Positions 13,593 to 32,619 of a DNA stretch of 64,000 nucleotides are shown in pieces; position 1 is the first letter of the stretch; every line of letters starts with the position of its first letter. The DNA is from Candidatus Zixiibacteriota bacterium (GTDB taxonomy: Bacteria; Zixibacteria; MSB-5A5; GN15; FEB-12), in the NCBI GenBank assembly GCA_041742355.1, contig JBGSIV010000139.1:511-64510 (forward strand). Reading direction: 5' to 3'. The translations under genes and the position numbers were made by a program. The notes beneath the pieces were generated by a model, which was given only the letters and a program-made list of their open reading frames with translations, was not told the origin of the DNA and did not search any database.

Positions 13593-13924
13593 ACTGTCCT
13601 GTCTTTGAGAGGTTTTTCCTTCAGCCGTTCGCTGCACCTACGGAACACTTCGCACGCTCGGCCCCACGGTGTCCCGAGGGCCGGTCTTGTATGGATCTGT
13701 CAAACGTATAGTACCTGCGCGAGGATCTTCGGACGGGTTAATGATATACTATATCGGTCTATAAAGTCAAGGAAAATCGCCGGCCGAGGATCCTGCCGGC
13801 CCCCGGCGCGGCCGGGTGGGGGGGAAAGCGGGCTGTTCGGCCCCTGCGGGCGGTCCGGCTCCCCCGGATCGAACGGGCCGCTCCATCGGATTGCGGCCGT
13901 GAAGATCCCGTGCGAAGCGCTATC

Positions 13925-14014
13925 GGTGAATGGCCCTGGTGAGGCGAATGGCCCTGGTGAGGCGAATGGCCTTGGTGCGGTGAGTGGCCTTGGTGAGGCG
14001 AAAGTCCCTGGCGC
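13925..14014. repeat. Tandem repeat, 5 x 18 bp (GGCGAATGGCCCTGGTGA consensus, degenerating rightward)
   Basis: Read directly from the sequence. It lies in non-coding high-GC DNA just left of the compositional break. Confidence 0.8.
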
Positions 14015-16655: not shown

Positions 16656-17354
16656 TGTAGCCACTTCTGTCCGCCGATATCCTTCTGTCTTTCCGGTGCT
16701 GCTCACTGCTTGTTTTCCTATTGCGTCTGATAGATGTACGCCCCGTCGGTGCTAAGACGGTTCTCCCAGTCGTCATGAGTATTCTCGGCAGGCGGGCCGT
16801 ACAGATGGTGAAGGCGAGACTGAAGCGTAGTCAGCATTTGCAGGCGGGATCAATTCTGGCCCATAACAAACTCCCCTCAGTATGCCAAGAATGATCGCGT
16901 CAATTTCAAGCATGTCGTTACCGGTTTCGCTGGATGGCAACTATAGTGGCCGGTTCCGAAACCAGCAGCGCCGTCAACTGCACCATCGCATTACCCTCGC
17001 GAACACGAGTTACGAGAGGCTGTGCGCTCTTAGCTCTGAGAACTACGGGTGGTGCGATATCGGGTACTACAGTAACCAATTTTGCACGAAAGAACTTGTC
17101 CCGGCGAGTCGAATACTATCCAAATCGAACCGGGCAGGGTCACTTGCTAAGACTACACACCGGTTCGGAAGCTGCAACGGCTGCTCGATCTCTGGCCTAC
17201 CTTTGTCGGCATTCGCTATGATCCGTATGATGATGAAATTCAAACCTGGTGAGCCCGAAGAGGATCAAGTGGGAAAGGCAAGGGCTAAACATGATTGCTA
17301 TCTTCCTGGTTCACCTAAAGGCTACAGAAATTGAAGTAATCTCTCAGGAACACC

Positions 17355-19325
17355 TTAGTCTCGCTCTTCAAGGATGGCAATGCAGTTGGCAGCTGCTCCA
17401 CCGGCTGTTAAGAAGGCCCCTCCGGCGACCAGGGCACCTTCGTGGACCGTCAGGGCCCTGACTTGTTGAGAAGCTCCTTCCATCCCGGAACCCATGGCCG
17501 ACCAGCGTTCACCATCCCAGAAGGCGATACTGCTAGCGCCCATTCCCCCGGCACGTGTGAACACCCCGCCCGCAACCAAGTAGCCATCGTACTGCGCTAG
17601 CGAATAGACGGGAAGGTCCGTTCCCGAATCAAGAGCCGACCAGTCCATACCATTCCATGCAGCGATGTTATTTGCAGTCACTCCCCCGGCACTGGTAAAG
17701 TATCCTCCCGCAATCAGGTTTCCGCCATACACAGCCAGTGCATTGATGTAGCCGTTTGTCCCCGAGCTAACGGCGGACCAGCTGTAACCATTCCAGGAGG
17801 CGATATTGGAGGCAGGCGTGCCGCCAGCCATTGTGAACTGTCCAGCAACAATTAGGTTTCCGTCATGCACGGTGAGAGCATTGACTTGCCCATTCACCCC
17901 TCCAGCAGTGAGGCCGTACCAGCTGAGAAAATACCACTTGGCAATATTGGCGACGCTTCTTCCACCAGCAGACGTGAATTCTCCACCAGCTATGAGATCA
18001 TCTTGATAACCGGTCAGCGCATGGACCCCGTTGTTCAGTCCCGAACCTAGCGCCGACCAAGTATTGCCATCCCACAAACCGATGTAGTTCGCATAGGTTC
18101 CCCCTATGACGCTAAACCACCCTCCAGCGATCAAGTTGCCATTGTGTAGCGTAAGAGCTTTTACAGTCTCGTTTGGCCGTGAGCCTAACGAGGACCAGTC
18201 TATACCGTTCCATGAAGCGATATAATTGGCGGTGTCTCCACCGTGGCTAACGAAGTATCCGCTTCCGCCTGCGATCAGGTTGCCATCGTACATAATCAGA
18301 GCCCGAACCATCCTGTATACACCCTCAATTCCGGATCCCAGCGGTTCCCACACCATCCTTGGTTGAAGAATCTTGAGCGTTTCCGGGTTACAATCATTCC
18401 CAAGCGCTATGACTACGCCATGGCGCGAAGTTTCCGTGAAATTGTCCTGAGCCGTGACCGTGAAGAAGTCCGGCGTCGTCCCGGATCTCTTGCTGACCTT
18501 CAGCCAGGATGTGTCGCTCGACGCTACAGAGTAGGCAGGGTTGATCACATTTGCCATGGTGATTTGGATCTGCCCACTGGTTCCTCCCATCCCCGGCAAT
18601 CGCACGGAATCAGGACTTATCACCAATGTCGGCTGGGTACCTGAAGGATATTGGGTGACCATGATGGTGTCCGGGCCACCGACTGCTCCTGGAGCGCTCA
18701 CGATGACTATCCCCTGGCGAAGCTCCGAAGTGCTATTCTCGGTCGTCACCTGAATTTGAAAGCTGTCCGGCGCCGCTCCTGATACTTTGCTCAGGGCGAT
18801 CCAACTGTCAGACCCAGCCGGCGTGCTGGCACTCCAATTGAAGCGGCTGCCGCCGTTACTGTTCTGCACCCGTATCGTGCGGTTGAAGCCTCCCGTCGCC
18901 GGGGCCGCCACGCTATCGGGCGTCACACCGAGGGTGGCACCTGGAGCCTGTATGCCGTCATAGGCGCTACGGGCCGACTCTTCTCCCCTCGAACCGACGG
19001 CACAGACTCGATAATAGTAGGTACGGCCCGCCCAGACCTCACCATCGGTGTAGGTGTTACGATCAGCGCTGACGTTCCCGGCTACAACGTCTTGGCCGGT
19101 ATCGGCCTCGCTGCGGTAGATCCGATAACCCTTGATTCCTGCGGCCGAGACTCTGTGCCACGTGACAGCGATACCTGCCGACTTGGTGTCCGCGCTGACA
19201 GCGAACGGGTCGTGGTTCTTAAAGACCTCTGGGTCAAGGGGGTTGTCGCGCTCACCGGGGCAGGCCACCAGCAGCAGGCCAAAGACTACTGCAAGCACGA
19301 AGACCAGAAGGAGAGAGTTTCGCAT
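17355..19325 (-). CDS. Lipoprotein: Fn3-like domain, two BACON-like Ig domains and a 7-bladed propeller (paralog 1, N-terminal type A)
   Basis: The lipobox is LLLVAC-PGERDNPLDP. IAVTWHRV...GYRIYRS...YYYRVCAV looks like Fn3. Seven roughly 47-aa repeats follow the pattern W(N/D)GxxWSxLGSG...LIAGGxFTxAGGxxANxIA. The C-terminus is IAILEERD. Confidence 0.75.
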   Translation of the reverse strand: MRNSLLLVFVLAVVFGLLLVACPGERDNPLDPEVFKNHDPFAVSADTKSAGIAVTWHRVSAAGIKGYRIYRSEADTGQDVVAGNVSADRNTYTDGEVWAGRTYYYRVCAVGSRGEESARSAYDGIQAPGATLGVTPDSVAAPATGGFNRTIRVQNSNGGSRFNWSASTPAGSDSWIALSKVSGAAPDSFQIQVTTENSTSELRQGIVIVSAPGAVGGPDTIMVTQYPSGTQPTLVISPDSVRLPGMGGTSGQIQITMANVINPAYSVASSDTSWLKVSKRSGTTPDFFTVTAQDNFTETSRHGVVIALGNDCNPETLKILQPRMVWEPLGSGIEGVYRMVRALIMYDGNLIAGGSGYFVSHGGDTANYIASWNGIDWSSLGSRPNETVKALTLHNGNLIAGGWFSVIGGTYANYIGLWDGNTWSALGSGLNNGVHALTGYQDDLIAGGEFTSAGGRSVANIAKWYFLSWYGLTAGGVNGQVNALTVHDGNLIVAGQFTMAGGTPASNIASWNGYSWSAVSSGTNGYINALAVYGGNLIAGGYFTSAGGVTANNIAAWNGMDWSALDSGTDLPVYSLAQYDGYLVAGGVFTRAGGMGASSIAFWDGERWSAMGSGMEGASQQVRALTVHEGALVAGGAFLTAGGAAANCIAILEERD

Positions 19326-19328
19326 AGC

Positions 19329-21275
19329 TCAGTCCTGCTCCTTGAGGATGGCGATCCTGTTGGCTGGCGATCCACCGGCCTCCGTAAAGTCTCCCGCAGC
19401 CACCAAGTCGCCGTTGAACACGGTCAGGGCATAAACATAACCGTTCATACCTTGTCCGAGCGTCAACCACTGCGATCCATCCCACCGCGCAATGTTGTAT
19501 GCTGGGACCCCACCTGAAATCACAAATCGCCCACCAACGATTATCTGCTTATTGTACCACTCCAGCGCCTCCACTCTTTCCGTTGTCCCGGATCCAAGAG
19601 GTCGCCATGAAGCCCCGTCCCACACTGCAATGTTATTGGCTACGATACCACCTGCCATTGTGAAATCCCCTCCGGCCACGAGCTCGCCGGTTTCCATAAT
19701 AGAAAGAAGCGACCACACATTCCCATCGATTCCACTTCCGAGAGTGGGCCAACCCGGGTATATGTTTCTGGCAATCCCACTGGCAATTTGACCCCCGATA
19801 ATCAAGTCTGAATTGTAACTTGCAATCGCCTCCACAGCTCCAAGATTGACCCCAATTGCCGACCATGACTCACTTGAGGCATTCCAACGAGCGACGTTCG
19901 TTCCCGATGCAGGAGTACCAAAGGCACCACCCACGATAAGCCCGTATCGGTCTTCACCAACGGCATACCCCGCTCCCGGACTCCATGATTGGTTTCCCAA
20001 TCCACTTCCAAGGGTGCTCCACGCGGTACTATCCCATGCAGCGACATTGAGTCCTGGTGAATTGAACCAGCCCGTGACGATGAGCTTTCCGCCATACACG
20101 TACAGCGCGTGAACCTGTGCTCCAGCATCTGATTGCCTTACCCCTTGAACCAAAGGGGCCCAGTGGGTTCCATCCCAGCGCGCGATTTTGTTAAGGGAAC
20201 CAACGCCCCATTCGTTGACTGGTCCGGTGAAGTAGCCCCCCGCATAGAGCTCACCTTTGTAAACGCATGTGGCCATCACCCGATTGTCTAAACCCTCCCC
20301 CAGTGGCTCCCATACCATCCTCGGCTGGTAGACCTTTAGCGTCTCGGGGGCACAGCCATTGGCAAGTGCGATGACTACACCATGCCGCGAAGTTGCCGTG
20401 AAATTGTCCTGAGCCGTCACCGTGAAGAAGTCCGGCGTCGTTCCGCCACTCTTGCTGACCGTCAGCCAAGAGGATTCGCTTGAGGCAACGCTAAAAGTTG
20501 GACTCGTACCATTCACAATAGTAATCTGAATCTGGTCGCTCGTTCCCCCAAGCCCCGGCAGGCGCACCGAATCCGGGCTGATCACCAACATGGGCTCAGC
20601 ATCCGAGGGGTACTGCGTCACTGCTATTGTATCCGGAGTACCGGCCACTCCCAACGCCGTTACAATGACGCGCCCCGTCCGGGAGGTACTGGAACTGCTG
20701 GTCCCCACTTTTGTCCAGACACTGTCCGGCGCGGTCCCGCTTGTTTTGCTGACCGTCAGCCACCCCGAGTCGCTCGCGATCGTGTAGTTGAACCGGCAAA
20801 TCGTGCTGTCGCTGCTGATGTGCAGCCAGAGGCTGTCCTTGGCCGCCCCCGCCGACCAACTTGACGGACTGGTCGAGAGCCGCGCGCCTGTCACCGTCAC
20901 CGAGTCCGGCTGGCAGGCCTCGGATTCCTTACCCTCGCTGTCGAGCGCCACGATGCGGTACCAGTAGGTTGTATTGGCATAACCTTCCTGATCCAGATAG
21001 CTGGTGACAGTCGTCGGTACCTCTCCGACAGGGATCGCTGCGGAGGCAGCCTGCGTGGAGCGGTAGACCCGGTAGCCGTCGACGCCTTTGACCTTGACGG
21101 CCTGCCACTCGACCAGGACACCTTGGGGGGTGAGATCGGCCTGCATGTGGAAGGGGTCGGGCAGGTCGGCCCCGGGATCAAGGGGGTTGTCGCGCTCTTC
21201 AGGGCAGCCCAGGACCAGCAGCAGCAAACCACAGGCTGCACCAAGCACGAGGATTGGCGTGAAGGTGTTTCGCAT
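19329..21275 (-). CDS. Lipoprotein: Fn3-like, BACON-like and propeller domains (paralog 2, N-terminal type B)
   Basis: The lipobox is LLVLGC-PEERDNPLDP, and the architecture matches paralog 1. The C-terminus is IAILKEQD. Only 3 nt separate it from the next start. Confidence 0.75.
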   Translation of the reverse strand: MRNTFTPILVLGAACGLLLLVLGCPEERDNPLDPGADLPDPFHMQADLTPQGVLVEWQAVKVKGVDGYRVYRSTQAASAAIPVGEVPTTVTSYLDQEGYANTTYWYRIVALDSEGKESEACQPDSVTVTGARLSTSPSSWSAGAAKDSLWLHISSDSTICRFNYTIASDSGWLTVSKTSGTAPDSVWTKVGTSSSSTSRTGRVIVTALGVAGTPDTIAVTQYPSDAEPMLVISPDSVRLPGLGGTSDQIQITIVNGTSPTFSVASSESSWLTVSKSGGTTPDFFTVTAQDNFTATSRHGVVIALANGCAPETLKVYQPRMVWEPLGEGLDNRVMATCVYKGELYAGGYFTGPVNEWGVGSLNKIARWDGTHWAPLVQGVRQSDAGAQVHALYVYGGKLIVTGWFNSPGLNVAAWDSTAWSTLGSGLGNQSWSPGAGYAVGEDRYGLIVGGAFGTPASGTNVARWNASSESWSAIGVNLGAVEAIASYNSDLIIGGQIASGIARNIYPGWPTLGSGIDGNVWSLLSIMETGELVAGGDFTMAGGIVANNIAVWDGASWRPLGSGTTERVEALEWYNKQIIVGGRFVISGGVPAYNIARWDGSQWLTLGQGMNGYVYALTVFNGDLVAAGDFTEAGGSPANRIAILKEQD

Positions 21276-21278
21276 GGC

Positions 21279-23258
21279 TCAGTCCTGCTCTTCAAGTCTG
21301 GCAACGTGATTCACAGAATGGCCGCTCGCAGTAGTGAAACTCCCCCCTACAACAAGATGATGGTCAAAAACGACCATGCAAAGGGGTGACACGGCGGGTA
21401 GGAAACCCGCTCCCATAGACTTCCAAGAGGAACCGTCCCACCGAGCAATACCCTGTGCTGGCACTCCGCCCGCACTACTAAATGGCCCGGCGACTACCAA
21501 CCAACCTTCGAATTCCGCAAGAGCTCTGCCGCCTAAGAACGAATTCAGGCCCGTTCCCACTGTTTTCCATGAACTTCCGTCCCGCCGCGCTATGCGGGCG
21601 CCCTCGTTCGTGAAGCCTCCGGTAGCATAGAGCTCATCGCGATATACTGCAACGGCGGAGACAAATGCGTTGAGTCCGGATCCAAGTTTCTGCCATGACT
21701 GGGTACTTCCGTCCCAAGCAGCTATATGTCCGCCACCGGTCGGTTGTGACACGTAGAATTGACCGCCTGCTATCAATCGATTCTGGAACATTGCCAACGC
21801 ACTAACAAAACCATTCAATTCGAAGCCAAGATCATCCCATGAGGAACCCATCCACAATGCGACGTTCTTGGCGGGTTGTCCGCCTGCTGCTGAAAAGAAG
21901 CCGCCGGCAACACGCCATGTACCCCATGTCAGAGCTCGAACTTCGGTCGCGTAGTCGCCCTCGTTGTCCATTCCAAGGTCCATTGCCCGCCAAGAAGCAC
22001 CGTCCCACGTGGCAATGCTATTCACCAATTGACCTCCAGCAGAGTCAAACTGGCCCCCGGCGTACAGCGAGTATGGATCGGCCGCCAAAGCGTACACCGC
22101 ACCGGTGGATGTTCCGGAGCCAAGCGCTTGCCAAGACGAGCCGTTCCAACGGGCAATGTTATTAACGATTGTTCCGTCGCCCGCTGAAGAGAACTGCCCA
22201 CCTGCAACCAGCTCGCCCTTGTAAACAGTGAGTGCATTCACCGGGCCATTTAGACCGAGGCCAAAGGGAGACCAACCCATCCACGGTTGATGAACTAGTA
22301 ATGTCTCCGGTAGACTGCCATTGGCATTAACCACAATAACTGCGTTTCTCGCGCTGTCATCGAAATTGGCAGAAGTAATGACTGAGTAGCTGCCTGGCGT
22401 GGAACTGGAACTTGAATTGACAGTCAACCACGAGATACTATTATCATCGGCAGTGACTGCGTAGGAGATGCTTCCCCCCGTTCCAATGTTACTAACTGTC
22501 ACGGTCAGAGTGTCACCAAGTCCGGCAGCCCGCCAAGCCGTATCCGATAGGTGTAGTTGGGGCGTCTGGGGAGGAACAGCTGGCTGGGTGACCTTGATGG
22601 TATCAAGTCCATCAGTTGCCCCCGAGGCACTCACGACAACTATCCCCTGACGGAGTTGTGAAGTGCCATTCTCGGTCGTCACCTGAATCTGAAAGCTGTC
22701 CGGCGCTGTCCCCGACGGCTTGCTCAGCTCGATCCAAGCAGCTGAGCCGGCCGGAGTGCTGGCAGTCCAGTTGAAGCGGCTGCCTCCGGTGCCGTTTTGC
22801 ACCCGTACCGTGCGGTTGAAGTCTCCCTCTGCTGGCGCTGCTACGCTGTCAGGGCTTACACTCAGCGTAGCGCCACGAGCCTTTATGCCGCCATAGGCGC
22901 TGCGAACCGACTCCTCTCCCCTCAATCCAACCGCACATACCCTGTAGTAGTAGGTGCGGCCCGCCCAGACCTCACCATCGGTGTACGTGCTCATGTCGGC
23001 GCTGACGTTTCCGGCCACGACATCTTGGCCGGTATCGGCTTCGCTCCTATAGATGCGGTATCCCTTGATTCCGCTTCCAGAGACCTTGTGCCAGGCTACC
23101 GCTATGCCAGCCGACGTCGTATCGACACTGACGGCAAACGGGTCGTGGTCCTTAAAGACCCCCGGATCCAGCGGGTTGTCACGCTCGCCGGGACAGGCCA
23201 GCAGCAGCAGGCCAACCGCTGCAGTGAGCGCGAAGACCGGAAGGAGAGAGTGTCGCAT
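21279..23258 (-). CDS. Lipoprotein: Fn3-like, BACON-like and propeller domains (paralog 3, N-terminal type A)
   Basis: The N-terminal 120 aa are nearly collinear with paralog 1 (GERDNPLDPGVFKDHDPFAVSVDTTSAGIAVAWHKV...). The C-terminus is VARLEEQD. Confidence 0.75.
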   Translation of the reverse strand: MRHSLLPVFALTAAVGLLLLACPGERDNPLDPGVFKDHDPFAVSVDTTSAGIAVAWHKVSGSGIKGYRIYRSEADTGQDVVAGNVSADMSTYTDGEVWAGRTYYYRVCAVGLRGEESVRSAYGGIKARGATLSVSPDSVAAPAEGDFNRTVRVQNGTGGSRFNWTASTPAGSAAWIELSKPSGTAPDSFQIQVTTENGTSQLRQGIVVVSASGATDGLDTIKVTQPAVPPQTPQLHLSDTAWRAAGLGDTLTVTVSNIGTGGSISYAVTADDNSISWLTVNSSSSSTPGSYSVITSANFDDSARNAVIVVNANGSLPETLLVHQPWMGWSPFGLGLNGPVNALTVYKGELVAGGQFSSAGDGTIVNNIARWNGSSWQALGSGTSTGAVYALAADPYSLYAGGQFDSAGGQLVNSIATWDGASWRAMDLGMDNEGDYATEVRALTWGTWRVAGGFFSAAGGQPAKNVALWMGSSWDDLGFELNGFVSALAMFQNRLIAGGQFYVSQPTGGGHIAAWDGSTQSWQKLGSGLNAFVSAVAVYRDELYATGGFTNEGARIARRDGSSWKTVGTGLNSFLGGRALAEFEGWLVVAGPFSSAGGVPAQGIARWDGSSWKSMGAGFLPAVSPLCMVVFDHHLVVGGSFTTASGHSVNHVARLEEQD

Positions 23259-23261
23259 CGG

Positions 23262-25187
23262 TCAGTCCTCCTCCTTGAGGACGGCAATGTTGTTGGCGGG
23301 GACCCCGCCGGCTTGCTCGAAATAGCCCGCCGCGATCAGTTGATTGTTGTATACCTCCAGAGCATAGACTCTGTCGTTCATCCCCGAGCCCAGAGGCGAC
23401 CACTCAACTCCGTCCCAGGAGGCAATCCCAGAGGCGGCTGTCCCTCCAGCCGAATCAAAAAACCCTGCGGCAATCAATCTGCCATCATAGACGGTCAGAG
23501 CTACTACGAGGTTATTCACGCCGGATCCCAAAGGGGACCAACTGGAGCCATTCCATGAGGCAACGTGGTTCGCACTGACCCCACCCGCTGATGTGAACAC
23601 GCCTCCCGCGATCAGATTGCCGTCGTACACTGCCAAGGCATAGACGTCCTCATACGCTCCCCCGGTTCCTGATCCGAGCGATGACCAAGTAGAACCATCC
23701 CATGCGGCGATACAACGATAGGGGGTCCAGAAGTTCCCTCCCGCAATAAGCTTGCCGTTATAGGTAGTCAGAGCGATAACACGACCATAAATGCCACTCA
23801 AGCCTGAACCCACTCGGGACCAGCCCGAGCTACTCCAAAAGGCGAGATAGTTGATGGCCGCATCCCCTACACTGTCGAATCCCCCCCCCACGTAGAGTGT
23901 GCCTTGATATCGGGCCAGAGCTTCCACCCACCCGTTCATTCCCGATGCAACCGTATCCCAGTAGGAACCGGTCCAATACGCGACGCCATCGACAAAGCCC
24001 GCGTACAAGAGCTCGAAAACGTTCAGCATCGTTGCCGGCCCGACTCCGTTGCCCGAACCGAAGGGCGACCATGTTTGCCCATCCCAAGAAGCCATGTGAT
24101 CGACGGCGATCCCGCCTGCCGTTGTGAACTGGCCCGCAGCGATGAGCTTTCCATCGCACGTTTCCAGGCAACGGACCAAGTAGTTGGTCCCAGACCCCAG
24201 AGGCTCCCACACCATTCTCGCCTGATGGACTTTCAGTGACTCCGGCTGCGGGATTCCGGACGCATAGACTCGCACCCAAGCATCCCGAGGACTCTCTCCG
24301 AAATTGTCCCTGGCGCTTACGGTAATAGTGTCGGGAATCGAACCACTGATCTTGCTCGGTGTAACCCAGGAATCACTGACGCTTATTGTGTATGACGAGA
24401 ACGAGCCTCCGGTAACACTGATGACAATCGCCTCGCTGGTGCCACCCAACCCCGGCAACCGCACAGAATAGGGGTTGATCACCAACGCCGCCCCTGGGTC
24501 GCTTGCGCTCTGCGTTACGACGACGGTATCAGGCGAATCGGCCACGTTGGGTGCATTCACCATGATGAGCGCGCTGTGCTCGGAGCCGGTGCTGTTGGCA
24601 CCAACTCTTATCAACACGCTATCCGGCGCCGTTCCGCCGGATTTACTTACGCTTAGCCAGCCAGCCGTACTGCTCACCGAGTAGTTGAACCGGCAGATCG
24701 TGCTGTCGCTGCCGATGTGAAGCTGGAAGCTGGCTGAATCCGCCTCCGGAGCCCACAGCAGGGGCGTCGCATGCAGTCGCGCCCCGGCAATGGTCACGCT
24801 GTCCGGCAGGCTCGGACTCGACACGGCACCATTGGCATCGACTGCAGCCACCCGGTACCAGTAGGTCGTGGTGTTGAAGCCGGTTTGATCGAGGTAGCTG
24901 GTGACGGTGGAGGACACATGTCCAACCACCGTCCCGGCTGTGGCTTCTTGAGAGGAGCGGTAGATTCGATAGCCCTTGACGCCGCTCACCTTAACACCCT
25001 GCCACTCCAACTGCACTCCCTCATCACTTAGTGAAACTTCAATCTGGAAGGGATCAGGCAAACTGCTGTTAGGATCCAATGGGTTGTCGCGGTCGCCGGG
25101 GCAGCCCAAGAGGAATACGACCGCTGCACAGGCAGCCGGCACCATTAGGATCCTGGATATAGCTCGCATAAGCGGATCCTTCTCCAA
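23262..25187 (-). CDS. Lipoprotein: Fn3-like, BACON-like and propeller domains (paralog 4, N-terminal type B)
   Basis: The lipobox is FLLGC-PGDRDNPLDP, and the N-terminal region is collinear with paralog 2. The C-terminus is IAVLKEED. The start may instead be the MRAISR codon at 25169. Confidence 0.75.
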   Translation of the reverse strand: MEKDPLMRAISRILMVPAACAAVVFLLGCPGDRDNPLDPNSSLPDPFQIEVSLSDEGVQLEWQGVKVSGVKGYRIYRSSQEATAGTVVGHVSSTVTSYLDQTGFNTTTYWYRVAAVDANGAVSSPSLPDSVTIAGARLHATPLLWAPEADSASFQLHIGSDSTICRFNYSVSSTAGWLSVSKSGGTAPDSVLIRVGANSTGSEHSALIMVNAPNVADSPDTVVVTQSASDPGAALVINPYSVRLPGLGGTSEAIVISVTGGSFSSYTISVSDSWVTPSKISGSIPDTITVSARDNFGESPRDAWVRVYASGIPQPESLKVHQARMVWEPLGSGTNYLVRCLETCDGKLIAAGQFTTAGGIAVDHMASWDGQTWSPFGSGNGVGPATMLNVFELLYAGFVDGVAYWTGSYWDTVASGMNGWVEALARYQGTLYVGGGFDSVGDAAINYLAFWSSSGWSRVGSGLSGIYGRVIALTTYNGKLIAGGNFWTPYRCIAAWDGSTWSSLGSGTGGAYEDVYALAVYDGNLIAGGVFTSAGGVSANHVASWNGSSWSPLGSGVNNLVVALTVYDGRLIAAGFFDSAGGTAASGIASWDGVEWSPLGSGMNDRVYALEVYNNQLIAAGYFEQAGGVPANNIAVLKEED

Positions 25188-25203
25188 CCAGCAACTATAG
25201 TGG

Positions 25204-26937
25204 TCATCTCAAGTTATTTCTAAGTAGTGCCACTCTCCCGGTGGACAAGCTGTAAGAGCCAATCACCGCGAGGTCCACATCTCCATCGCCGTCATAGTCC
25301 AGCCGCGCCATTTTCACAGGTCGACTGGGAACAGGAAAATAGACTGGAGTCGGCGGCATTCCGGCTTCCGAAAACAGGAATATGGCGACAGATTGCTCCG
25401 TTAGCGTCGCCAGATCCTCGAACCCGTTCTCGTCGAAGTCGCTACTCTCAATGATTGTTGCACCGGGGTAGCCGGCAACACTCCGGCATGATTGGCTCAA
25501 TTGACCCTGACCGTTGCTGACAAGAATTGCCAGGGTGCCGGAAGAGCAACTCACCGCCAGATCCGCTTGCCCTGTGGCAGAGTTGACCTTAACGCATAGA
25601 TCAGTCGGGGGTTCGCCGCATGGACTGTAGTAGGTGGGAGCAGCGAATTGGGCAGGTCCCGAACTCAAGATGACCGCAATAGAAGATGCGGAGATACATG
25701 CGAAATCATCGTACGCATCGCCGTTCAGGCGACATTTGACAACTCGGTCGCCGATATCAGGAACAGCAAGCGATGCGACAGTATCGAGCGTCCATTGTCC
25801 ATCCAATCCCCATCGACTCTTCCAGAACACCATCCTGTACTCACAGCCAGCAACGAGATCAGTCTTTCCGTCATTATTCAGGTCAGACATTACTACAGCT
25901 GAGGCATATCCTTGAGAGCTCCTGGACCAGTCAGGGCCAGCCCTCTGGATGAACCCACCTCCCCCATTATTTAGGTGCAAACGAAATGTATGAGTCAAGA
26001 CCACAGCGGCTGCGATGTCTATCTTCCCGTCATTGTTGATGTCACCTACCGCTGTTGGCGCTATCCCGGACATACCAGTGCATTCAGCTCCCAAGATATT
26101 CCAATTCCAGTAGGTACCGTCGGTTGGGGATCCAACGATGATCTCGTCATCGCCATCACCATCGAGGTCCGCGCAGAAAACTTCCACCTTGAGGTACGGG
26201 TCTTGGTACAGCTGTTCGTAGCCGTACAAGTCTCTCACGCCTGAGGTCACCGGCACGACGATTGCAGTGTCGGCCCCGACGAAGACTAGTTCCGCACTCA
26301 GGGCATCCGATCCAATCTCAGTTGTATTCATATCCACCGCTACCGACATGCTGTTTCCCACACCCGAATCCGGGTGGACGTTCAGCCAGGAGCCGTTGAC
26401 CACAGACACCTGCCACGTCAGTGTCCCTCCTCCAAGGTTTTTCACCAGAAGCGTCTCTGGGGAAGGCAACAGCCCACCACGGAATGCCTCGAAGTGCAGC
26501 GAGTCAGGCTGAACCGACAGCCGAGGTTCCCCTATCCCCAGATTAGTTACAACCGAACTGCGAACACTCTCCTTGTTGGCTCCTCCCAGAGCCGTTACCG
26601 CATAGTAGTAGGTGTTCCCCGGTTCAGCGGTTTGATCCAAGTAGCCATGATCAGTCCCGGGTAGAGTCACTAAAGGAGTCAAGTTCGTCTCAAGTACTCC
26701 CCGGTATAGCCGGTAGCCGGTGACTCCCGGGTTGCCGATGGATTGCCACTCCAGTAACCAGCCAGCACTTTGCGGCATGATTGTCAGCTTAAATGGATCC
26801 TCAGACACAACATTGGACGGATCCAAAGGGTTATCGGGATCAACGGGACAACCAAGTATACCAAGCGCGAGAGCCAGCCCCGCAATAGAAACACCCCACA
26901 GTGCGATCGTCCCTATCACAGCGCGAAGAAATCCCAT
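25204..26937 (-). CDS. Lipoprotein with an Fn3-like domain, an Ig-like domain and FG-GAP/VCBS-type (integrin-alpha-like) repeats
   Basis: It begins with ILGC-PVDPDNPLDP. The repeats include DLDGDGDDEIIVG, DINNDGKIDIAAA, DLNNDGKTDLVAG and DYDGDGDVDLAVIG. Confidence 0.7.
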   Translation of the reverse strand: MGFLRAVIGTIALWGVSIAGLALALGILGCPVDPDNPLDPSNVVSEDPFKLTIMPQSAGWLLEWQSIGNPGVTGYRLYRGVLETNLTPLVTLPGTDHGYLDQTAEPGNTYYYAVTALGGANKESVRSSVVTNLGIGEPRLSVQPDSLHFEAFRGGLLPSPETLLVKNLGGGTLTWQVSVVNGSWLNVHPDSGVGNSMSVAVDMNTTEIGSDALSAELVFVGADTAIVVPVTSGVRDLYGYEQLYQDPYLKVEVFCADLDGDGDDEIIVGSPTDGTYWNWNILGAECTGMSGIAPTAVGDINNDGKIDIAAAVVLTHTFRLHLNNGGGGFIQRAGPDWSRSSQGYASAVVMSDLNNDGKTDLVAGCEYRMVFWKSRWGLDGQWTLDTVASLAVPDIGDRVVKCRLNGDAYDDFACISASSIAVILSSGPAQFAAPTYYSPCGEPPTDLCVKVNSATGQADLAVSCSSGTLAILVSNGQGQLSQSCRSVAGYPGATIIESSDFDENGFEDLATLTEQSVAIFLFSEAGMPPTPVYFPVPSRPVKMARLDYDGDGDVDLAVIGSYSLSTGRVALLRNNLR

Positions 26938-26961
26938 TTCTTGGGCTCCACCGAATAGGGT

Positions 26962-27783
26962 TCAAATCCCGCCAAACCACAGCGTTGCTGTCAGACCACG
27001 ACCATCGGTTGTCAAACCAATCTTGGGAGCTTTGGCTTTCTCACGATATCCATCACAGCCGAAATCCGGCTCGTGCGGCTTAGTGGCCAAGAAATAGACC
27101 TCAGTCACAAAGAGTGCTCCTGCGGCTCCAATCAGGATGTTCCGCAGTTGGACCTTGGTTGTATAGTCATCCCAGGCAGAGCTGATATCAGCCGGAGCTA
27201 CCGAGGCGCGGTACTCATCATGTGCGTCACCGGCTTGCCGATTAACCACCAGCGCGCCGACTATAGCGGCGGCTCCTGCCCCGGCGGCGACCATCCTGTA
27301 TACTCGATTCCTCTTAGCATCTCGCAGGAACAACTGACATGCACGTATTCGACGCTCGTCTTCATAATAAGCCCTCGCGCGCAGGGAGTCTGTTGCTGCT
27401 CTGAAGGTAGAGTCGACGATTGGGTCTCCAGATACCTCGGGTTTGAAGGAGGGGTTTTCATTCAATGCCATCAGGTACTGCTCCAGTCCTGCCTTACACT
27501 TGTCTACAGCCTCCTGATGCATAGAGATATACACGTACGCCAACCACCCATGGCATCTCGAGCGGGAGAAGCTAGACAATGTGTCACTCTGGAGGAATTC
27601 CTTGAGAATACGTTCTGCGCACGGATAATTCGTTGCGCGGATATAGTCTTCGGCTTTCTCGATGGAAGCCTTTTCGTAGACGCACGAATCATTCTGTGCC
27701 AGCACACCCGCCGCACTAAACAGAATGCAGGCAATAATGACGAGAGCGCTTGATGGCAAGTCACGAAGAAGCTGGTGTTGCAT
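26962..27783 (-). CDS. Hypothetical membrane protein (N-terminal signal or anchor, helical TPR-like region, two predicted transmembrane helices)
   Basis: 273 aa. The hydrophobic segments are ALVIIACILFSAAGVLA, VYRMVAAGAGAAAIVGALVV and ILIGAAGALFVTEVYFLA. It sits in the operon between the CHAT and FG-GAP genes. Confidence 0.5.
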   Translation of the reverse strand: MQHQLLRDLPSSALVIIACILFSAAGVLAQNDSCVYEKASIEKAEDYIRATNYPCAERILKEFLQSDTLSSFSRSRCHGWLAYVYISMHQEAVDKCKAGLEQYLMALNENPSFKPEVSGDPIVDSTFRAATDSLRARAYYEDERRIRACQLFLRDAKRNRVYRMVAAGAGAAAIVGALVVNRQAGDAHDEYRASVAPADISSAWDDYTTKVQLRNILIGAAGALFVTEVYFLATKPHEPDFGCDGYREKAKAPKIGLTTDGRGLTATLWFGGI

Positions 27784-27817
27784 TCTAATACCCTGCTCTC
27801 TAATGGTTGGGGAGGCA

Positions 27818-30208
27818 CTATTTTATCAACATAGTAACCTGCCTGTAATCCCTCAGCTCACCGTTCAAGTCAAGCTCGACCTTATTGCCCTGAAATGATA
27901 TCCGCCGGTCGGGCCCATATGGGAAGAGTATGATTGAATCCACATCAGAAGACGCACTCGGCGTATCGGGCCTAAGGAACTCCAAATGCCAAGTTCCTCT
28001 GCACAGGTTAAGGACAATATTGGGACCCGGAGGCGCCATAGGACGGGGAAAACCATTCGCTTTGAGCTTCAGCGACTTAAGTCCGTTGCCTCCTATCTGG
28101 ACTCTTACCTCTTCGCACCCTTTATATATTTCTTCCAGACTTACAGGCAACGGATCGTTGCTCTCGACATCATAGCGAAAGGAGTAAATAGGAAAATTCG
28201 GATTCTCAATCCGTATCTCATGTTGCCCTTGGGAAACACTGACCTCGGTACCAACATCCCAATACTTGTCATCGATAGACAGGCGCGAACTTTCTTTCGG
28301 CGTAATCTCCACCATAAAGGTGAACATCGGCAAGATGGACACGGGGGAGAGCCGCTGGCTCTCGGCGGTTGGGTCAGGGATTGCTGGAACCAAGGAAGAT
28401 GTTGTGCAGGACAACAGTCCTGAGGGAGATGATTCGAATTGTCCAAGGTACGACTTGATTCCAAACGTGTATCCCGTATTCGGTCTTAATTCCCCCACCG
28501 TGTAAGAGCTTCTGCTGACATCGACCGTGTCGACGCGGCAGACGGTCCCGGCGCAACTACCCGTGATGATAACCCCAGACTCTCCGTTCTGCTTGAACTC
28601 CCAGGCCAACGTGATGCTCGACGGAGTCGACGATATTGCCGTCAGAGACGTCGGGGTTGTAAGTTCTTCCGTTTTCGCATTGCCCTGGCCGGGTTCCGAT
28701 ACCCACCGTCCTGATACGGCCTGAATTGAATAGCGGTATTCAGTGCCAGGTGCCAATCCGGTATCTTGAAAAACGGTGGTATTGCCGGGAAGCGAGGCGG
28801 TCCGGTGAGAATCATCGGAACGCCGAGTTAGTAAGTACTTGTCGACGTGCAGGCTTGCTTCCGAGAGTGGGGAATCTGACCAATCAACAAAGATATCGGT
28901 GTGCGAGGGACTAAGTGTGACCTGGGGCGCCGGGGGTGCGAACAGAGGGTTAAGCAGCCGCATGGTGTAATCCGAGAACAGCACGCTTGTACCTAGTCCA
29001 AGCGCAATCACGGCCAGGAAACCGATCATGACTCGAATGGCCGCCTTGGGTACACCCCTTAATGCTCTCCTCCACCAAGGTGTTCGTATTTTGAAGAGTC
29101 TTCCATCCCTTGACCGCATGTATAGTACAGGTGTACCCCATTCAAGAAGAAGATCTTGTTCCTGGGCTAAGGCCTTTCGAGCGTGCACTGTGGCGAGATC
29201 GACCGGTTCACCTTTGGCGATCCTACCGTAGAACTTCTGAGTCAGCAAGCCAGCAGCCGACACTGAAATGGCATTGTTCATTCCAAGTACTGCCGGTATA
29301 CCTTGAGCTACCAGAGCTTGGGCCACAGAAATCGCAGTCGAACCCGCCATTGCCCCTTTACAGGCCGCGAGAAAAACGAACTTCACCGTGGGATGATCGC
29401 CTACTGTGCGTGCAAACCTGTTCGCCGTTACAGCGACCGAACGATGGAGAGAGTCCTCGAGGCAAAGGTAGGTTTCCCCTACCCGTTGGTCTATATCCCC
29501 GTGGCCGACAAAATGAACTACGTGGTACTCTCGTTCACCAAGTTTCTCTTCGAGCGATTCAATCGATGGGTGGTCAAGCCAATCGATTGCAACCTGCCGT
29601 CTTTCGATGTGCGGTTCCAGCGCACCGGCAATAGCTCTCCACTCGGCCCTTGCATCAATCGGAGCAAGATCGTCGGGGTGCGCCGTCACGACCAGCACAT
29701 TCAGAGCCTTCTTGACCGCCACGGCGACAATTGGGAATGGAGACGGAAGAAACCGAACGAACGGGGTCCGAGGCGAGAGGGCCAGATGGCCGAAGATTCG
29801 ATGATGCAGGAACTCCCAAGGCAACTGCTCGAACTCTCCTGCGTTATCGAATGATATGTACAAACGTACAAAAGTGCCACCCTTGCGAGCATCATCACTC
29901 GCTTGTAAGAACTTCGCGAGACTGTAGTCATCTGCAAGGAGTGAGTGCAGTAACCGTTCACCGATCCGCTCAGGAGAGAGTGTCTCACCAACAACCGAGC
30001 TTTCTTCTAGTGAGGTCGTTGCACTCAGGACTCTGGTGGCCGATACCCTGCGGCTAGTTTCAAATGCACGCGACTCCTCTGCAGACAACGGTGGATTAAA
30101 CGGATGTTCTGTTTGGCCATACTCCGAGTCCGTAGATACGACAAAACCATCGATCGACCTTCTCAAGGTTATCTTGAACGGAATGTATTTCTCTTCCCGC
30201 CCTGCCAT
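27818..30208 (-). CDS. CHAT-domain (caspase-like) protein with one transmembrane helix, two Fn3 domains and a C-terminal beta-rich domain
   Basis: 796 aa. YHVVHFVGHGD (catalytic His context) and VKFVFLAACKGAMAG (catalytic Cys context) mark the CHAT domain. The transmembrane helix is AIRVMIGFLAVIALGLGTSVLF. The Fn3-like segments are VTLSPSHTDIFVDWS...TEYRYSIQAV and LTAISSTPSSITLAWEF...NTGYTFGIKSY. Confidence 0.8.
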   Translation of the reverse strand: MAGREEKYIPFKITLRRSIDGFVVSTDSEYGQTEHPFNPPLSAEESRAFETSRRVSATRVLSATTSLEESSVVGETLSPERIGERLLHSLLADDYSLAKFLQASDDARKGGTFVRLYISFDNAGEFEQLPWEFLHHRIFGHLALSPRTPFVRFLPSPFPIVAVAVKKALNVLVVTAHPDDLAPIDARAEWRAIAGALEPHIERRQVAIDWLDHPSIESLEEKLGEREYHVVHFVGHGDIDQRVGETYLCLEDSLHRSVAVTANRFARTVGDHPTVKFVFLAACKGAMAGSTAISVAQALVAQGIPAVLGMNNAISVSAAGLLTQKFYGRIAKGEPVDLATVHARKALAQEQDLLLEWGTPVLYMRSRDGRLFKIRTPWWRRALRGVPKAAIRVMIGFLAVIALGLGTSVLFSDYTMRLLNPLFAPPAPQVTLSPSHTDIFVDWSDSPLSEASLHVDKYLLTRRSDDSHRTASLPGNTTVFQDTGLAPGTEYRYSIQAVSGRWVSEPGQGNAKTEELTTPTSLTAISSTPSSITLAWEFKQNGESGVIITGSCAGTVCRVDTVDVSRSSYTVGELRPNTGYTFGIKSYLGQFESSPSGLLSCTTSSLVPAIPDPTAESQRLSPVSILPMFTFMVEITPKESSRLSIDDKYWDVGTEVSVSQGQHEIRIENPNFPIYSFRYDVESNDPLPVSLEEIYKGCEEVRVQIGGNGLKSLKLKANGFPRPMAPPGPNIVLNLCRGTWHLEFLRPDTPSASSDVDSIILFPYGPDRRISFQGNKVELDLNGELRDYRQVTMLIK

Positions 30209-31193
30209 ACCCGTGATTCCTGTGCCTATGATCAGTCGAACGATCTTCGCAGCAAATAGCCTTGCCTCTGGCTATCCAGCTCCGTAGCATCGCGCTAGTC
30301 GCATGTGACTAAGATATCCGTTGAAATGAAGTTGTCAATAGCTACTCTAATATGGCGTTACTTCCCGCGACATGGGGCTGAAAGGCAGAGAAGTAGCTGG
30401 AAGACGTGCGTCTCGGCACTAACATAGGGGCACAGACGAGCCGCCCGTCTGAGTCTAAAAAAGTAGCATCTACCCGTTTGCCAAGGGAGAACATCGCTCC
30501 GCCGCTTGCGAAGGCACTTCCGGTTCCCAAGCGAAATCCTACCTGGTCTCGATTGCCGCGGCCCTCCGCCGCTCACCGGCCTGTTTACGGCAGCCATAGT
30601 CTGCCCTTTTGCCTCGGTTGCTCTGTCGCGGGCGCCGGCTGGCCTGTAGCCTTCACCTGAACTCGGGGACATCGGCTATAGGCTAGCAGTGTTTCAAGGA
30701 GCTTGTCGTCAGCAGCCCCAAGTAGCTGAGCTTCCGCATGCATATCTGACTCCGGCGAGGTTCTTACAGCAGCTTCTGAAGTGCGGCTGCAGGACCCCTC
30801 CCTCTGGGGTTAAACTTCGGGTGAGACACCATCCTCAGCCATGATCCTGAAAGATCAGAAATCATTCTTCTCACAAAGTGATGGAAACCTGTGAAAATTC
30901 GGCGGCTCGCTGCCATATGGAGTATGAAGGCCTTCGGTAAGCCGATTACACTGGTGTTTCAGCTAAACCGCACGCCGCTATGGCTAATCGCCAATGCTAA
31001 CAGCAGACAAACCAATACAACTGCGAAATTGAATAACAGGACGCGCTTCGCAATCTCTTGCTGCTTGAAAGGAGGCCAGAAGTTGAACTCTCACCGGCCG
31101 GGCACCGGTCTGATCCCAAAGAGAGCAGTCCGGTACGGCGCGGCGTCCAGAATTTGATAAGTCCTTCAACCAAAACATTCTGAAAGGCATTGT

Positions 31194-32528: not shown

Positions 32529-32619
32529 GGAAGCCATGCGGCGGCCCGACGTCAAGTCAGTTCAGACAATCGAAGCACGAAACAGACAACGTGAACCAAA
32601 TCTGAGAAGGAGAACAAAA

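Follow-up and report, generated by a model that had tools for sequence, protein, structure and literature searches.

The 64-kb window, by which we mean the whole stretch of DNA analysed here, contains a cluster of genes encoding a transmembrane CHAT protease and an array of surface lipoproteins. The locus raises the question of whether such a cluster serves outside-in signalling or conflict, the two functions offered for it in the original prediction, and of what a CHAT protease anchored beneath surface proteins might cut.

The CHAT protein and its surface lipoproteins

The ORF list matched exactly the seven minus-strand genes, 3 to 34 nt apart, of the original prediction. In 5'-to-3' order, they encode the CHAT protein, a membrane protein, an FG-GAP lipoprotein and four propeller lipoproteins, separated by 34, 24, 16, 3, 3 and 3 nt (Table 1). 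Their description as a single operon is in keeping with this tight packing and with a search for a strong internal terminator within the cluster, which found none. The proposed domains were confirmed by Pfam profiles, with E-values of 2.5e-22 for CHAT, whose score clears the Pfam threshold, and 8.7e-17 for two fn3 stretches in the 796-aa protein and with BACON, BACON_2, Rax2 and DUF5122 propeller matches in all four propeller paralogs. Alignment also upheld the CHAT catalytic dyad. All five full-length relatives, although merely 25-31% identical, keep H236 (HFVGHG), C283 (LAACKG) and the surrounding GHG and C-x-G motifs without change, and of about 60 related CHAT modules inspected, almost all have the dyad motifs.

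Because the CHAT protein has a single strong TM helix, no N-terminal signal peptide in a search for one and a K/R-rich N-terminal flank (six K/R residues just before the helix, one after), the predicted topology has a cytoplasmic CHAT domain and puts both Fn3 domains on the outer side of the membrane, as originally proposed. The conserved C-terminal beta domain completes the ectodomain. AlphaFold pLDDT values were about 80-90 for CHAT and 84-91 for the C-terminal domain, and Foldseek matched the model to SAVED-CHAT 8tl0 and to Fn3 arrays. The membrane partner is a small, predicted bitopic or polytopic protein with hydrophobic segments at residues 161-179 and 216-234 and no Pfam family. Its ortholog (211-286 aa) lies directly 3' of the CHAT gene at all five loci (HMM E 1e-68 to 1e-132).

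The five lipoproteins share a lipobox followed by C-P-(G/E/V)-(E/D)-(R/P)-D-N-P-L-D-P, so that the C-P-x-x-(R/P)-DNPLDP motif reported earlier holds for every member. Of the Fn3-like heads claimed for them, that of the last paralog alone is Pfam-significant (7e-5); the assignment is further supported by the AlphaFold model of lipoprotein 7 (Fn3 at residues 43-126, pLDDT about 70-84; propeller about 75-90), by Foldseek, which returned Fn3 matches and a resemblance to Fn3 + propeller ectodomains, and by the mutual homology of the five N-termini. The N-terminal 200 aa or so of the FG-GAP lipoprotein are 32-36% identical to the propeller-paralog heads. For the putative Fn3-Fn3 wiring of the lipoproteins to the CHAT ectodomain, specific sequence similarity between the two groups of Fn3 domains was sought and not found. 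The listed TTG start of lipoprotein 4 is probably too early, and the Met of MRAISRIL at about 25169 suits a signal peptide.

Table 1. Features of the CHAT locus and its neighbourhood in the window
Feature	Position	Strand	Length	Description
ECF-type promoter motif	15367-15392	+		GTGAAAAT-N13-GCCAT(GT), 69 nt upstream of sigma gene
ECF sigma factor	15461-16030	+	189 aa	NCBIfam TIGR02937 sigma70-ECF; Pfam Sigma70_r4_2
Anti-sigma factor	16017-16655	+	212 aa	Soluble, zf-HC2 (ZAS-type); extra C-terminal domain of about 100 aa
Probable remnant of small secreted Cys/aromatic-rich protein gene	16882-17334	+		Weak similarity to L001 118-aa protein
Lipoprotein 7	17355-19325	-	656 aa	Lipobox, CPGERDNPLDP, Fn3, BACON x2, beta-propeller
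Lipoprotein 6	19329-21275	-	648 aa	Architecture as lipoprotein 7
Lipoprotein 5	21279-23258	-	659 aa	Architecture as lipoprotein 7
Lipoprotein 4	23262-25187	-	641 aa	Architecture as lipoprotein 7
FG-GAP lipoprotein	25204-26937	-	577 aa	Pfam FG-GAP_3 (8.5e-26) and BACON_2; lipobox-motif-Fn3-BACON head as in propeller paralogs
Membrane partner	26962-27783	-	273 aa	Signal peptide; helical domain in the periplasm containing a conserved pair of Cys; two TM helices at the C-terminus
CHAT protease	27818-30208	-	796 aa	CHAT 1-375, TM 393-411, Fn3 x2, all-beta C-terminal domain 628-796 (Pfam, hydrophobicity, AlphaFold)
Housekeeping-type promoter candidate	30311-30338	-		TTGACA-16-TATCTT, for the seven-gene operon; 10/12 consensus match
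Second exact ECF-type motif copy	30891-30916	+		Points away from CHAT operon, toward 31194-34074
Predicted sigma target	31194-32528	+	444 aa	Secreted, very acidic, Cys-rich; signal peptide
Predicted sigma target	32536-34074	+	512 aa	Same transcription unit as 444-aa gene; N-terminal hydrophobic segment

A linked sigma/anti-sigma pair

The seven-gene cluster belongs to a larger, very rare module that includes a sigma/anti-sigma pair. The genes assigned to the original box stand, but its extent was too small, missing the pair, the ECF promoter motif and the predicted targets at 31194-34074. Among 1.84 billion representative proteins searched with a profile, only five full-length CHAT-protein relatives were identified, so the recurrence of the neighbours described below cannot be put down to the sampling of a large family. 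Surface proteins adjoin the CHAT gene at all five loci, with Fn3-BACON-propeller lipoproteins at three and FG-GAP proteins at three. The predicted linkage of CHAT to surface lipoproteins thus recurs in other genomes, where propeller lipoproteins with the same post-Cys motif flank the orthologs at loci L015 and L016 and FG-GAP proteins flank those at L001 and L010.

Of the four loci whose length allows a judgement, three (the window, L001 and L016, whose CHAT proteins are 25-31% identical) have the pair beside the CHAT gene, and at these three the genes for sigma, anti-sigma and a small secreted protein converge on the CHAT operon. At L015, which has CHAT, the membrane partner and three lipoproteins, HMM searches of 10 kb upstream and 9 kb downstream found neither sigma nor anti-sigma, so the pair is either not obligatory or encoded elsewhere. 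No such sigma is encoded near four related TM-CHAT proteins whose ectodomains differ.

The window sigma factor scored 53.8 bits against TIGR02937 (cut-off 42.9) over residues 29-174 and is 46% and 35% identical to the L001 and L016 orthologs. Its gene is overlapped by 14 nt by that of the anti-sigma, which is 28% identical to the L001 ortholog over its full length and scored 20.6 bits for Pfam zf-HC2 (cut-off 22.2), with 24.2 bits for the L016 ortholog. H29-x3-C33-x2-C36 (HxxxCxxC) is invariant across four orthologs. The alignment also revealed invariant L94, L98 and P108 in the linker and conservation of the extra C-terminal domain; a conserved residue that might serve as P1 was not evident in the linker. 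No hydrophobic segment was present in the three anti-sigma orthologs scanned (window, L001 and L009). A soluble anti-sigma is beyond periplasmic or intramembrane proteases but within reach of a membrane-tethered cytoplasmic one. The small secreted Cys/aromatic-rich protein has 118-174 aa in L001, L016 and L010. Its window copy is probably decayed: similarity to the L001 118-aa protein is weak (pairwise E 4e-8; HMM E 9e-4), and neither a signal peptide, in whichever frame, nor a preceding ECF motif was found.

Promoters and predicted sigma targets

The motif GTGAAAAT-N13-GCCAT has exactly two exact matches in the window and none in 100 shuffles. The first is a candidate autoregulated promoter of sigma, and the motif recurs before the sigma orthologs at a distance of 68-70 nt, exactly in L001 and with two mismatches in L016. 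Exact copies outside the window number two in L001 and one in L016, and near-exact ones occur in L009 and L016. All copies are intergenic, correctly oriented and upstream of a sigma or secreted-protein gene.

No ECF motif was present upstream of the CHAT operon. Sites equivalent to its housekeeping-type promoter candidate precede the CHAT orthologs in L001 (TTGACT-16-TATCTT), L016 (TTGACA-16-TATCGT) and L010 (TTGACA-17-TATTAT); these are consensus matches only, and the overall number of sigma-70-type promoter matches is not above chance. Because the operon has the conserved TTGAC(A/T)-16/17-TAT... site instead of the ECF motif, this arrangement fits a CHAT protein that would act as an input to sigma, not an output.

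The 444-aa predicted target matched no Pfam or NCBIfam family, and its last 100 aa or so are similar to the C-terminal end of the L016 BACON lipoprotein (tblastn 1e-6). The 512-aa protein carries a 13-letter repeat five times and WDDGG about 20 times, and neither its whole length nor its middle part matched a Pfam or NCBIfam family.

A proposed surface-to-transcription module and its alternatives

On the basis of gene neighbourhood and predicted topology, we propose a surface-to-transcription module centred on a single-pass receptor protease, a tentative reading to which we give not quite an even chance. The CHAT ectodomain, assisted by its membrane partner and by either Fn3-headed lipoproteins or FG-GAP proteins, would sense an extracytoplasmic ligand or surface state. 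The cytoplasmic CHAT domain, activated by sensing and plausibly through clustering, would cut the anti-sigma, either in the conserved linker or in the C-terminal domain. Sigma, once released, would transcribe the operon that encodes it and a few secreted proteins, namely the 118-aa Cys-rich protein elsewhere and the two acidic proteins in the window, with the sensor operon itself expressed from the housekeeping-type promoter. Against this reading, the invariant ZAS motif permits redox control of the anti-sigma with no protease involved, the sigma link rests on three informative loci and the small secreted-protein gene looks decayed in the window.

In an alternative reading, the two gene groups are functionally independent neighbours. 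The operon would then be a surface adhesion or glycan/other ligand-binding apparatus, for which BACON, FG-GAP and propeller domains are typical, with CHAT regulating or processing itself, the adjoining membrane protein or some different target in the cytoplasm; the ECF sigma, merely co-inherited, would be controlled by the ZAS anti-sigma through RsrA-type thiol oxidation. The invariant HxxxCxxC, the missing pair in L015 and the lack of an ECF motif before the CHAT operon agree with this. However, it leaves the cytoplasmic protease without a substrate, no other cytoplasmic partner being encoded nearby, and must account for a conserved anti-sigma C-terminal domain superfluous for a plain redox switch and for the convergent arrangement in three genomes at 25-46% protein identity within a family of five known members. 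We regard it as unlikely. That CHAT is a non-catalytic scaffold, the protein being a mere membrane anchor for assembling the lipoprotein array, has a precedent in CHAT domains in a resting or incomplete state, such as that of DdvA (PMC11506125). The invariant His, Cys, GHG and C-x-G at such low identity are nevertheless the pattern expected under selection for catalysis, and with the same motifs in nearly all related modules inspected make a scaffold highly improbable.

An anti-phage or other conflict system would use the propellers as decoy or sentinel receptors, with phage or toxin contact activating CHAT to kill or arrest the cell by cutting essential proteins and sigma release at most an accessory alarm. 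CHAT proteases do serve as effectors in SAVED-CHAT and Craspase systems, the PADLOC SAVED_CHAT model matches the CHAT domain (1.4e-13) and the paralog propellers (30-50% identity) are far more diverged than the stalk modules (70-88%). The locus is also part of a low-GC island that has restriction-type genes, encodes a ParB-methylase, a GmrSD/HNH nuclease and a PD-T4-6-like kinase and stops at a tRNA-Asn, and a Cas9 fragment and an integrase lie near L016 and L015, respectively. This defence-island context is, however, loose and unconserved over the five loci; PADLOC gave no system and no component besides the CHAT domain, no relatives were found among 2.9 million viral contigs and the genes predicted to depend on sigma encode secreted proteins of structural appearance and not defence functions. 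We consider a conflict role improbable.

Comparison with known systems

In the DegS/RseP-RseA pathway, an extracytoplasmic signal leads to proteolytic loss of a membrane-spanning anti-sigma, cut outside and within the membrane. The proposed module would likewise turn an outside signal into anti-sigma proteolysis, but here the anti-sigma is soluble and the membrane-spanning part is the protease. In the Csx29 (TPR-CHAT)-Csx30-CASP-sigma system, or Craspase, the protease cuts a soluble inhibitor, Csx30, which binds the ECF-type sigma through its N-terminal part, and so frees the sigma (PMC10028731). The shared features are a cytoplasmic CHAT, a soluble sigma inhibitor with an extra C-terminal domain and sigma motifs in the own locus. 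In contrast, the window module has no CRISPR, Cas7-11, crRNA or TPR region, Csx30 and the zf-HC2 anti-sigma are unrelated in sequence, the candidate trigger is an extracytoplasmic domain across the membrane instead of RNA recognition and cleavage is here a prediction. In CalpL-CalpT-CalpS (type III-B CRISPR), according to 10.1101/2023.06.23.546230, a signal-activated protease similarly cuts a soluble anti-sigma-like protein to release sigma; CalpL is Lon-like, senses cyclic oligoadenylate through SAVED and is neither CHAT nor membrane-bound.

DdvA-DdvS of Myxococcus xanthus also combines CHAT and a zinc-finger anti-sigma in one envelope-spanning ECF pathway with a single TM helix. However, DdvA is a periplasmic TPR-CHAT fused to the anti-sigma, with release proposed via RseP (PMC11506125), whereas the window CHAT is predicted to be cytoplasmic, lies on a separate protein and lacks TPR, and the anti-sigma has no membrane segment. 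HetF of Anabaena shares an N-terminal CHAT, one TM segment and a C-terminal domain, but it contains TPR, belongs to the divisome, where it binds FtsI, and lacks a linked sigma/anti-sigma pair and lipoprotein array (PMC8406250); the NCBIfam HetF match over the CHAT part is weak (53.7 bits, family cut-off 1200). Regulation of ECF sigmas by CHAT proteins was proposed earlier from comparative genomics of the ECF54 group, whose sigmas have CHAT, subtilase or carboxypeptidase genes nearby; these are actinobacterial and described without an anti-sigma, whereas the window module has a conserved one (PMC8999054; PMC7826278). The literature search found no described system of the cluster's composition, and the claim that none is known has held.

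The original observation is confirmed, and its interpretation is partly supported. The sigma/anti-sigma pair, the conserved promoter motif and the predicted target genes, all outside the seven-gene box, favour signalling over the less probable conflict reading, which leans on a loose context. By analogy, we infer that the module may represent a transmembrane variant of the Craspase/CalpL logic.

Architecture of the CHAT operon

The original prediction described a minus-strand operon in which a membrane-bound CHAT protein with two Fn3 domains is joined to surface lipoproteins. The ORF list agreed, showing seven minus-strand ORFs separated by gaps of 34, 24, 16, 3, 3 and 3 nt, and cotranscription was not contradicted, as the cluster contains no strong intrinsic terminator. 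A Pfam profile search located the CHAT domain (PF12770; caspase-hemoglobinase fold; 2.5e-22; 80.1 bits versus a cut-off of 24) at residues 101-352 of the 796-aa CHAT protein, along with two fn3 stretches. The structural model of the CHAT domain matched SAVED-CHAT 8tl0, and the sequence profile matched 8tl0_A at 1.8e-8. Models were of moderate quality, with a mean pLDDT of 70 for the CHAT protein and 65 for the lipoprotein, built on 5 and 4 aligned sequences, respectively. Alignment upheld the predicted catalytic dyad, with H236 (HFVGHG) and C283 (AACKG) invariant in all five family members. Their spacing of 47 residues is comparable to that of H862/C907 in DdvA and H615/C658 in Csx29 (PMC11506125, PMC10028731). 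A single strong transmembrane helix is predicted at residues 393-411, placing the CHAT domain in the cytoplasm and the Fn3 pair outside, since the protein has no signal peptide and carries six K/R residues before the helix and one after.

Surface lipoproteins

Pfam matches identified FG-GAP and BACON domains in the 577-aa lipoprotein, and two BACON domains with a Rax2/DUF5122 β-propeller in each of the four ~650-aa paralogs. The BACON, FG-GAP and DUF5122-Rax2 matches exceed the curated thresholds, and the propeller is well modelled. In all five proteins the signal peptide ends in a lipobox of the form [LVI][ASTVIGL][GAS]C (ILGC, LLGC, LLAC, VLGC and LVAC at residues 19-30), directly followed by the P-x-x-(R/P)-D-N-P-L-D-P motif that had been noticed originally and by a homologous Fn3-BACON head. 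Within the DNA examined, which holds few other lipoproteins for comparison, this post-Cys motif is confined to the nine lipoproteins of the module and could be a sorting signal. The Fn3 domains of the CHAT ectodomain showed no specific similarity above background to those of the lipoproteins (best E 0.012).

The four genes for propeller lipoproteins have a mosaic structure: paralogs 5 and 7 share 78-88% identity over residues 1-210 and paralogs 6 and 7 share 68-79% over residues 211-330, while the propellers of all four are only 30-50% identical to one another. The pattern points to gene conversion acting on the stalks, to propellers that have diversified, or to both processes.

A sigma factor and a predicted anti-sigma factor next to the operon

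All seven genes of the predicted unit were confirmed, but the unit extends beyond the original box of 17355-30208, with three genes on the plus strand running convergently toward the operon's 3' end. The first encodes an ECF sigma factor with sigma-2 and sigma-4 regions only and a profile match over threshold. The gene directly after it encodes the predicted anti-sigma factor, whose zinc motif lies in an N-terminal domain and is invariant in four orthologs. Its score against Pfam zf-HC2 is 20.6 bits, just below the cut-off of 22.2, and the ortholog from L016, the locus of another full-length CHAT relative, exceeds the cut-off at 24.2. The protein has no hydrophobic segment and carries ~100 extra C-terminal residues. 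The third, a 150-aa ORF, matches its secreted homologs only weakly, has lost both the signal peptide and the ECF promoter, and can be regarded as a probable pseudogene remnant.

Features of the CHAT module and its surroundings in the window and in loci of related proteins.
Locus	Feature	Position	Strand	Remarks
Window	Low-GC stretch	~14000-54700		GC 0.51-0.59 versus 0.60-0.65 in flanks
Window	Tandem repeat, 18 nt x4	13924-14018		Edge of low-GC stretch
Window	Short ORFs only, ~1.4 kb	14060-15460		GC 0.51; between Laminin_G/dockerin-type protein region and sigma gene
Window	ECF-type motif copy	15367-15392	+	Toward sigma gene, 69 nt upstream
Window	ECF sigma factor	15461-16030	+	TIGR02937 53.8 bits versus cut-off 42.9, residues 29-174 of 189
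Window	Predicted anti-sigma factor, 212 aa	16017-16655	+	H-x3-C-x2-C zinc motif; overlaps sigma gene by 14 nt
Window	150-aa ORF	16882-17334	+	Homologous to conserved small secreted Cys/aromatic-rich protein
Window	Propeller lipoprotein genes (paralogs 4-7)	17355-25187	minus	
Window	Membrane partner, long form, 273 aa	26962-27783	minus	
Window	CHAT protein, 796 aa	27818-30208	minus	
Window	ECF-type motif copy	30891-30916	+	Points at acidic-protein genes
Window	Secreted, very acidic protein	31194-32528	+	No known family; divergent from CHAT gene
Window	Secreted, very acidic protein, 512 aa	32536-34074	+	No known family; divergent from CHAT gene
Window	Coding tandem arrays	33538-34115		39 nt x5, then 15 nt x ~20; end of 512-aa protein
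Window	tRNA-Asn	54608-54681	minus	End of low-GC stretch
Window	Tandem repeat, 17 nt x4	54763-54845		Edge of low-GC stretch, ~80 nt from tRNA-Asn
L001	Membrane partner, short form	12404-13045		
L010	Membrane partner, short form	3483-4118		
L015	Membrane partner, long form	12408-13268		
L016	Membrane partner, long form	2680-3510		
L009	Fourth sigma/anti-sigma pair of same family	3107-4709		4.7-kb contig
L011	Large GerE/LuxR-type HTH protein	8289-10658		Directly beside TM-CHAT protein with another ectodomain
L014	Large GerE/LuxR-type HTH protein	6637-7809		Directly beside TM-CHAT protein with another ectodomain
L015	Tyrosine integrase	2792-3955		Beside lipoprotein genes
L016	Cas9 N-terminus gene	9634-10731		GIDLGxNSIGW RuvC-I motif; ~3 kb from sigma gene

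Relatives of the CHAT protein and their neighbourhoods

A profile search of 1.84 billion representatives gave 7,796 matches to the CHAT module at E < 1e-30, and only five proteins matched over the full length: the window protein, P0002, P0003, P0078 and P0092. A word-indexed search recovered a single full-length homolog and another spanning 62% of the query; the remaining matches had only the N-terminal ~375-residue CHAT module in common. Among the relatives inspected this module is joined to many different C-termini, and about half carry a transmembrane segment followed by varied ectodomains.

The loci around the four other full-length proteins (L001, L010, L015 and L016) were set against the window in tblastn and HMM searches. 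Inspection of the five neighbourhoods supported the anticipated linkage of CHAT to surface proteins. A membrane protein of 211-286 aa lies directly downstream of CHAT in every locus. Fn3-BACON(-propeller) lipoproteins with a post-Cys motif of the (D/E)RDNP(L/F)DP type occur in the window, L015 (three paralogs) and L016, and FG-GAP proteins lie near CHAT in the window, L001 and L010. A sigma gene, an anti-sigma gene lacking a transmembrane helix and a small secreted-protein gene converge on the CHAT operon in the window, L001 and L016, the small protein being 118 aa long in the latter two and decayed in the window. The small protein is also encoded in L010, a 6.5-kb contig too short for judging the sigma pair. 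An HMM search found no sigma pair within 10 kb upstream and 9 kb downstream in L015, and no related sigma factor near four TM-CHAT proteins with other ectodomains. Two of these four lie beside HTH proteins (Table), and membrane CHAT proteases may often be paired with transcription regulators.

The membrane partner occurs in two forms. The short form (211-213 aa, one C-terminal transmembrane helix, PPGN end) accompanies FG-GAP proteins with a T9SS-type C-terminal domain, and the long form (273-286 aa, two C-terminal transmembrane helices plus a tail) accompanies Fn3-BACON lipoproteins. The window has the long form although its CHAT protein is closest in sequence to that of L001.

Further loci were sought in three ways. 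With the sigma alignment, a scan of the genome collection recovered the L001 genome alone; with the CHAT alignment, a metagenome scan gave only generic CHAT proteins; and a word-indexed search using the C-terminal ectodomain alignment gave no match. A prophage or viral origin was rejected, as the CHAT and lipoprotein alignments found no match in a viral contig collection.

Predicted promoters

The motif GTGAAAAT-N13-GCCAT(G/A)T precedes the sigma gene in the window and, in L001, both the sigma gene and the small-protein gene. Reduced to GTGAAAAT-N13-GCCAT, with 13 specified bases, the pattern has exactly two matches in the window and none in 100 shuffles. In both L001 and L016, exact or near-exact copies lie upstream of the sigma gene and of the 118-aa gene; the distance to the sigma start codon is 68-70 nt in all three sigma loci. 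In L009, a copy with one mismatch lies upstream of the gene after the anti-sigma gene, which encodes a 256-aa secreted protein and is followed by a gene for an LVIVD-repeat protein, so the sigma targets differ among genomes. No copy was found in the other retrieved loci. The pattern is as expected for an autoregulated ECF promoter whose small regulon encodes secreted proteins. In the window genome, the second ECF promoter is predicted to drive the acidic proteins, not the small-protein remnant. The tandem arrays of the 512-aa protein encode an extremely acidic, aromatic tail.

The CHAT operon itself was rejected as an output of the sigma factor because the minus strand of 17355-30208 and the region upstream of it gave no match to the motif with up to two mismatches, and a housekeeping-type site is present there instead. 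This site, TTGAC(A/T)-16/17-TAT(C/T)(T/G/A)T, is a consensus match only; its recurrence at a similar position near the CHAT operons of four loci suggests that the sensor genes are expressed by a housekeeping sigma factor.

Comparison with known systems

Csx29 (TPR-CHAT) cleaves Csx30 and thereby frees CASP-sigma, a logic that operates inside the cell (PMC10028731), as does that of CalpL, which cleaves CalpT to free CalpS (as summarised in 10.1101/2023.06.23.546230). The window module is not a Craspase since Craspase/type III-E CASP needs CRISPR and TPR, both of which the module lacks. Craspase parts (Cas7-11, a CRISPR array, Csx30/Csx31, a TPR-CHAT architecture) were not found in the window. 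A regulatory RNA was also rejected, both for the long leader 30917-31193 and for the rest of 14-35 kb, where Rfam gave no match at E up to 0.1. In DdvA, a periplasmic CHAT is coupled to an anti-sigma domain within a single membrane protein (PMC11506125), in the order anti-sigma domain, transmembrane helix and periplasmic TPR-CHAT. The window module is not DdvA-like because its CHAT and anti-sigma are separate proteins and its CHAT, N-terminal to the helix and without a signal peptide, lies on the opposite side of the membrane; in contrast to DdvA, its anti-sigma has no transmembrane helix. CHAT genes have been noted near ECF54 sigma factors, which lack anti-sigma factors (PMC8999054; PMC7826278), whereas the window module has one. 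The CHAT protein is also not HetF (NF045509; 53.7 bits versus an equivalog cut-off of 1200).

In PADLOC-DB 2.0 only the CHAT domain found a match (SAVED_CHAT), and the membrane partner, sigma and anti-sigma were unmatched; the module is no PADLOC system. Its proteins belong to the CHAT, ECF-sigma, zf-HC2, BACON, FG-GAP and propeller families. A literature search for a membrane-spanning CHAT protease whose partners include a soluble anti-sigma and arrayed surface lipoproteins agreed with the earlier view that no system of such composition has been described. The module would represent an already known type, protease-gated ECF sigma release, with new features, and is rare but conserved across distant genomes.

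Genomic setting

The low-GC stretch is probably a horizontally acquired island. It also holds genes for a ParB-N6/N4 methylase, a terminase-small-like HTH protein, a MerR protein, a GmrSD_N+HNH nuclease (NsnA-like), a PD-T4-6/mad6-like Ser/Thr kinase, and an 829-aa Hsp70-like protein followed by a TPR protein. The window ORFs scanned included no integrase. The tandem repeats at the two edges of the stretch are unrelated in sequence.

Proposed mechanism and alternatives

Among the principal routes by which bacteria signal across the membrane are ECF sigma factors. They are known to be released by cutting of a membrane-spanning anti-sigma factor, partner switching, phosphorylation or sigma extensions. 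To our knowledge, proteases that free a sigma factor by cleaving a soluble inhibitor have so far been described only for intracellular sensors linked to CRISPR or CBASS (Craspase, CalpL). Because the window anti-sigma is predicted to be soluble, we infer that the periplasmic and intramembrane proteases that cut classical anti-sigmas have no access to it; the only protease encoded with it appears to be the CHAT domain, which faces the cytoplasm and is joined to a sensor directed outward. We therefore rank signalling first between the two roles originally offered, signalling or conflict, and tentatively put at somewhat below an even chance a model drawn from gene neighbourhood, topology and three informative loci. 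In this model, the Fn3-Fn3-beta ectodomain, acting with the membrane partner and with the surface proteins encoded nearby, would receive an extracytoplasmic signal that activates the CHAT domain. The activated CHAT would cleave the anti-sigma, and the released sigma would turn on its own gene and those of a few secreted proteins. Possible but doubtful is a more specific "receptor-caspase" pathway, in which ligand binding by a diversified set of Fn3-headed surface propellers or FG-GAP proteins is passed to a single-pass receptor whose CHAT domain directly cuts the soluble anti-sigma.

The sigma pair might instead be an independent redox switch merely co-inherited with the surface-protein operon, consistent with the ZAS motif of the anti-sigma and with L015, where the pair was not found in the interval searched. 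We consider this unlikely, as the arrangement recurs within the five-member family and the anti-sigma carries an extra domain. A conflict system with CHAT as death effector would fit the low-GC island that ends at tRNA-Asn and carries methylase, GmrSD/HNH and kinase genes, the presence of a Cas9 fragment and an integrase at related loci, and the much faster divergence of propellers than of stalks. However, known defence components and viral relatives are lacking and the sigma targets look structural, which makes this role improbable. That CHAT is a catalytically dead scaffold is very improbable given the invariant dyad.

If CHAT-driven release of the sigma factor holds, the logic of Craspase and CalpL would be driven from outside by a membrane-spanning caspase-like protease, a new receptor type. 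The module's few components (a receptor with its partner, an anti-sigma, a sigma and a defined promoter) would also form a compact, testable kit that could be used as an orthogonal protease-gated switch. The module would provide an initial functional setting for part of the very large family defined by the CHAT module, with more than 7,000 representatives, many of which, among the relatives inspected, bear a transmembrane segment and varied ectodomains. The receptor-caspase pathway, if true, would be a distinct form of information transfer across the membrane, in which the protease rather than the anti-sigma spans it. Formally, it would parallel the death-receptor/caspase signalling of eukaryotes, but with transcription instead of death as its outcome.
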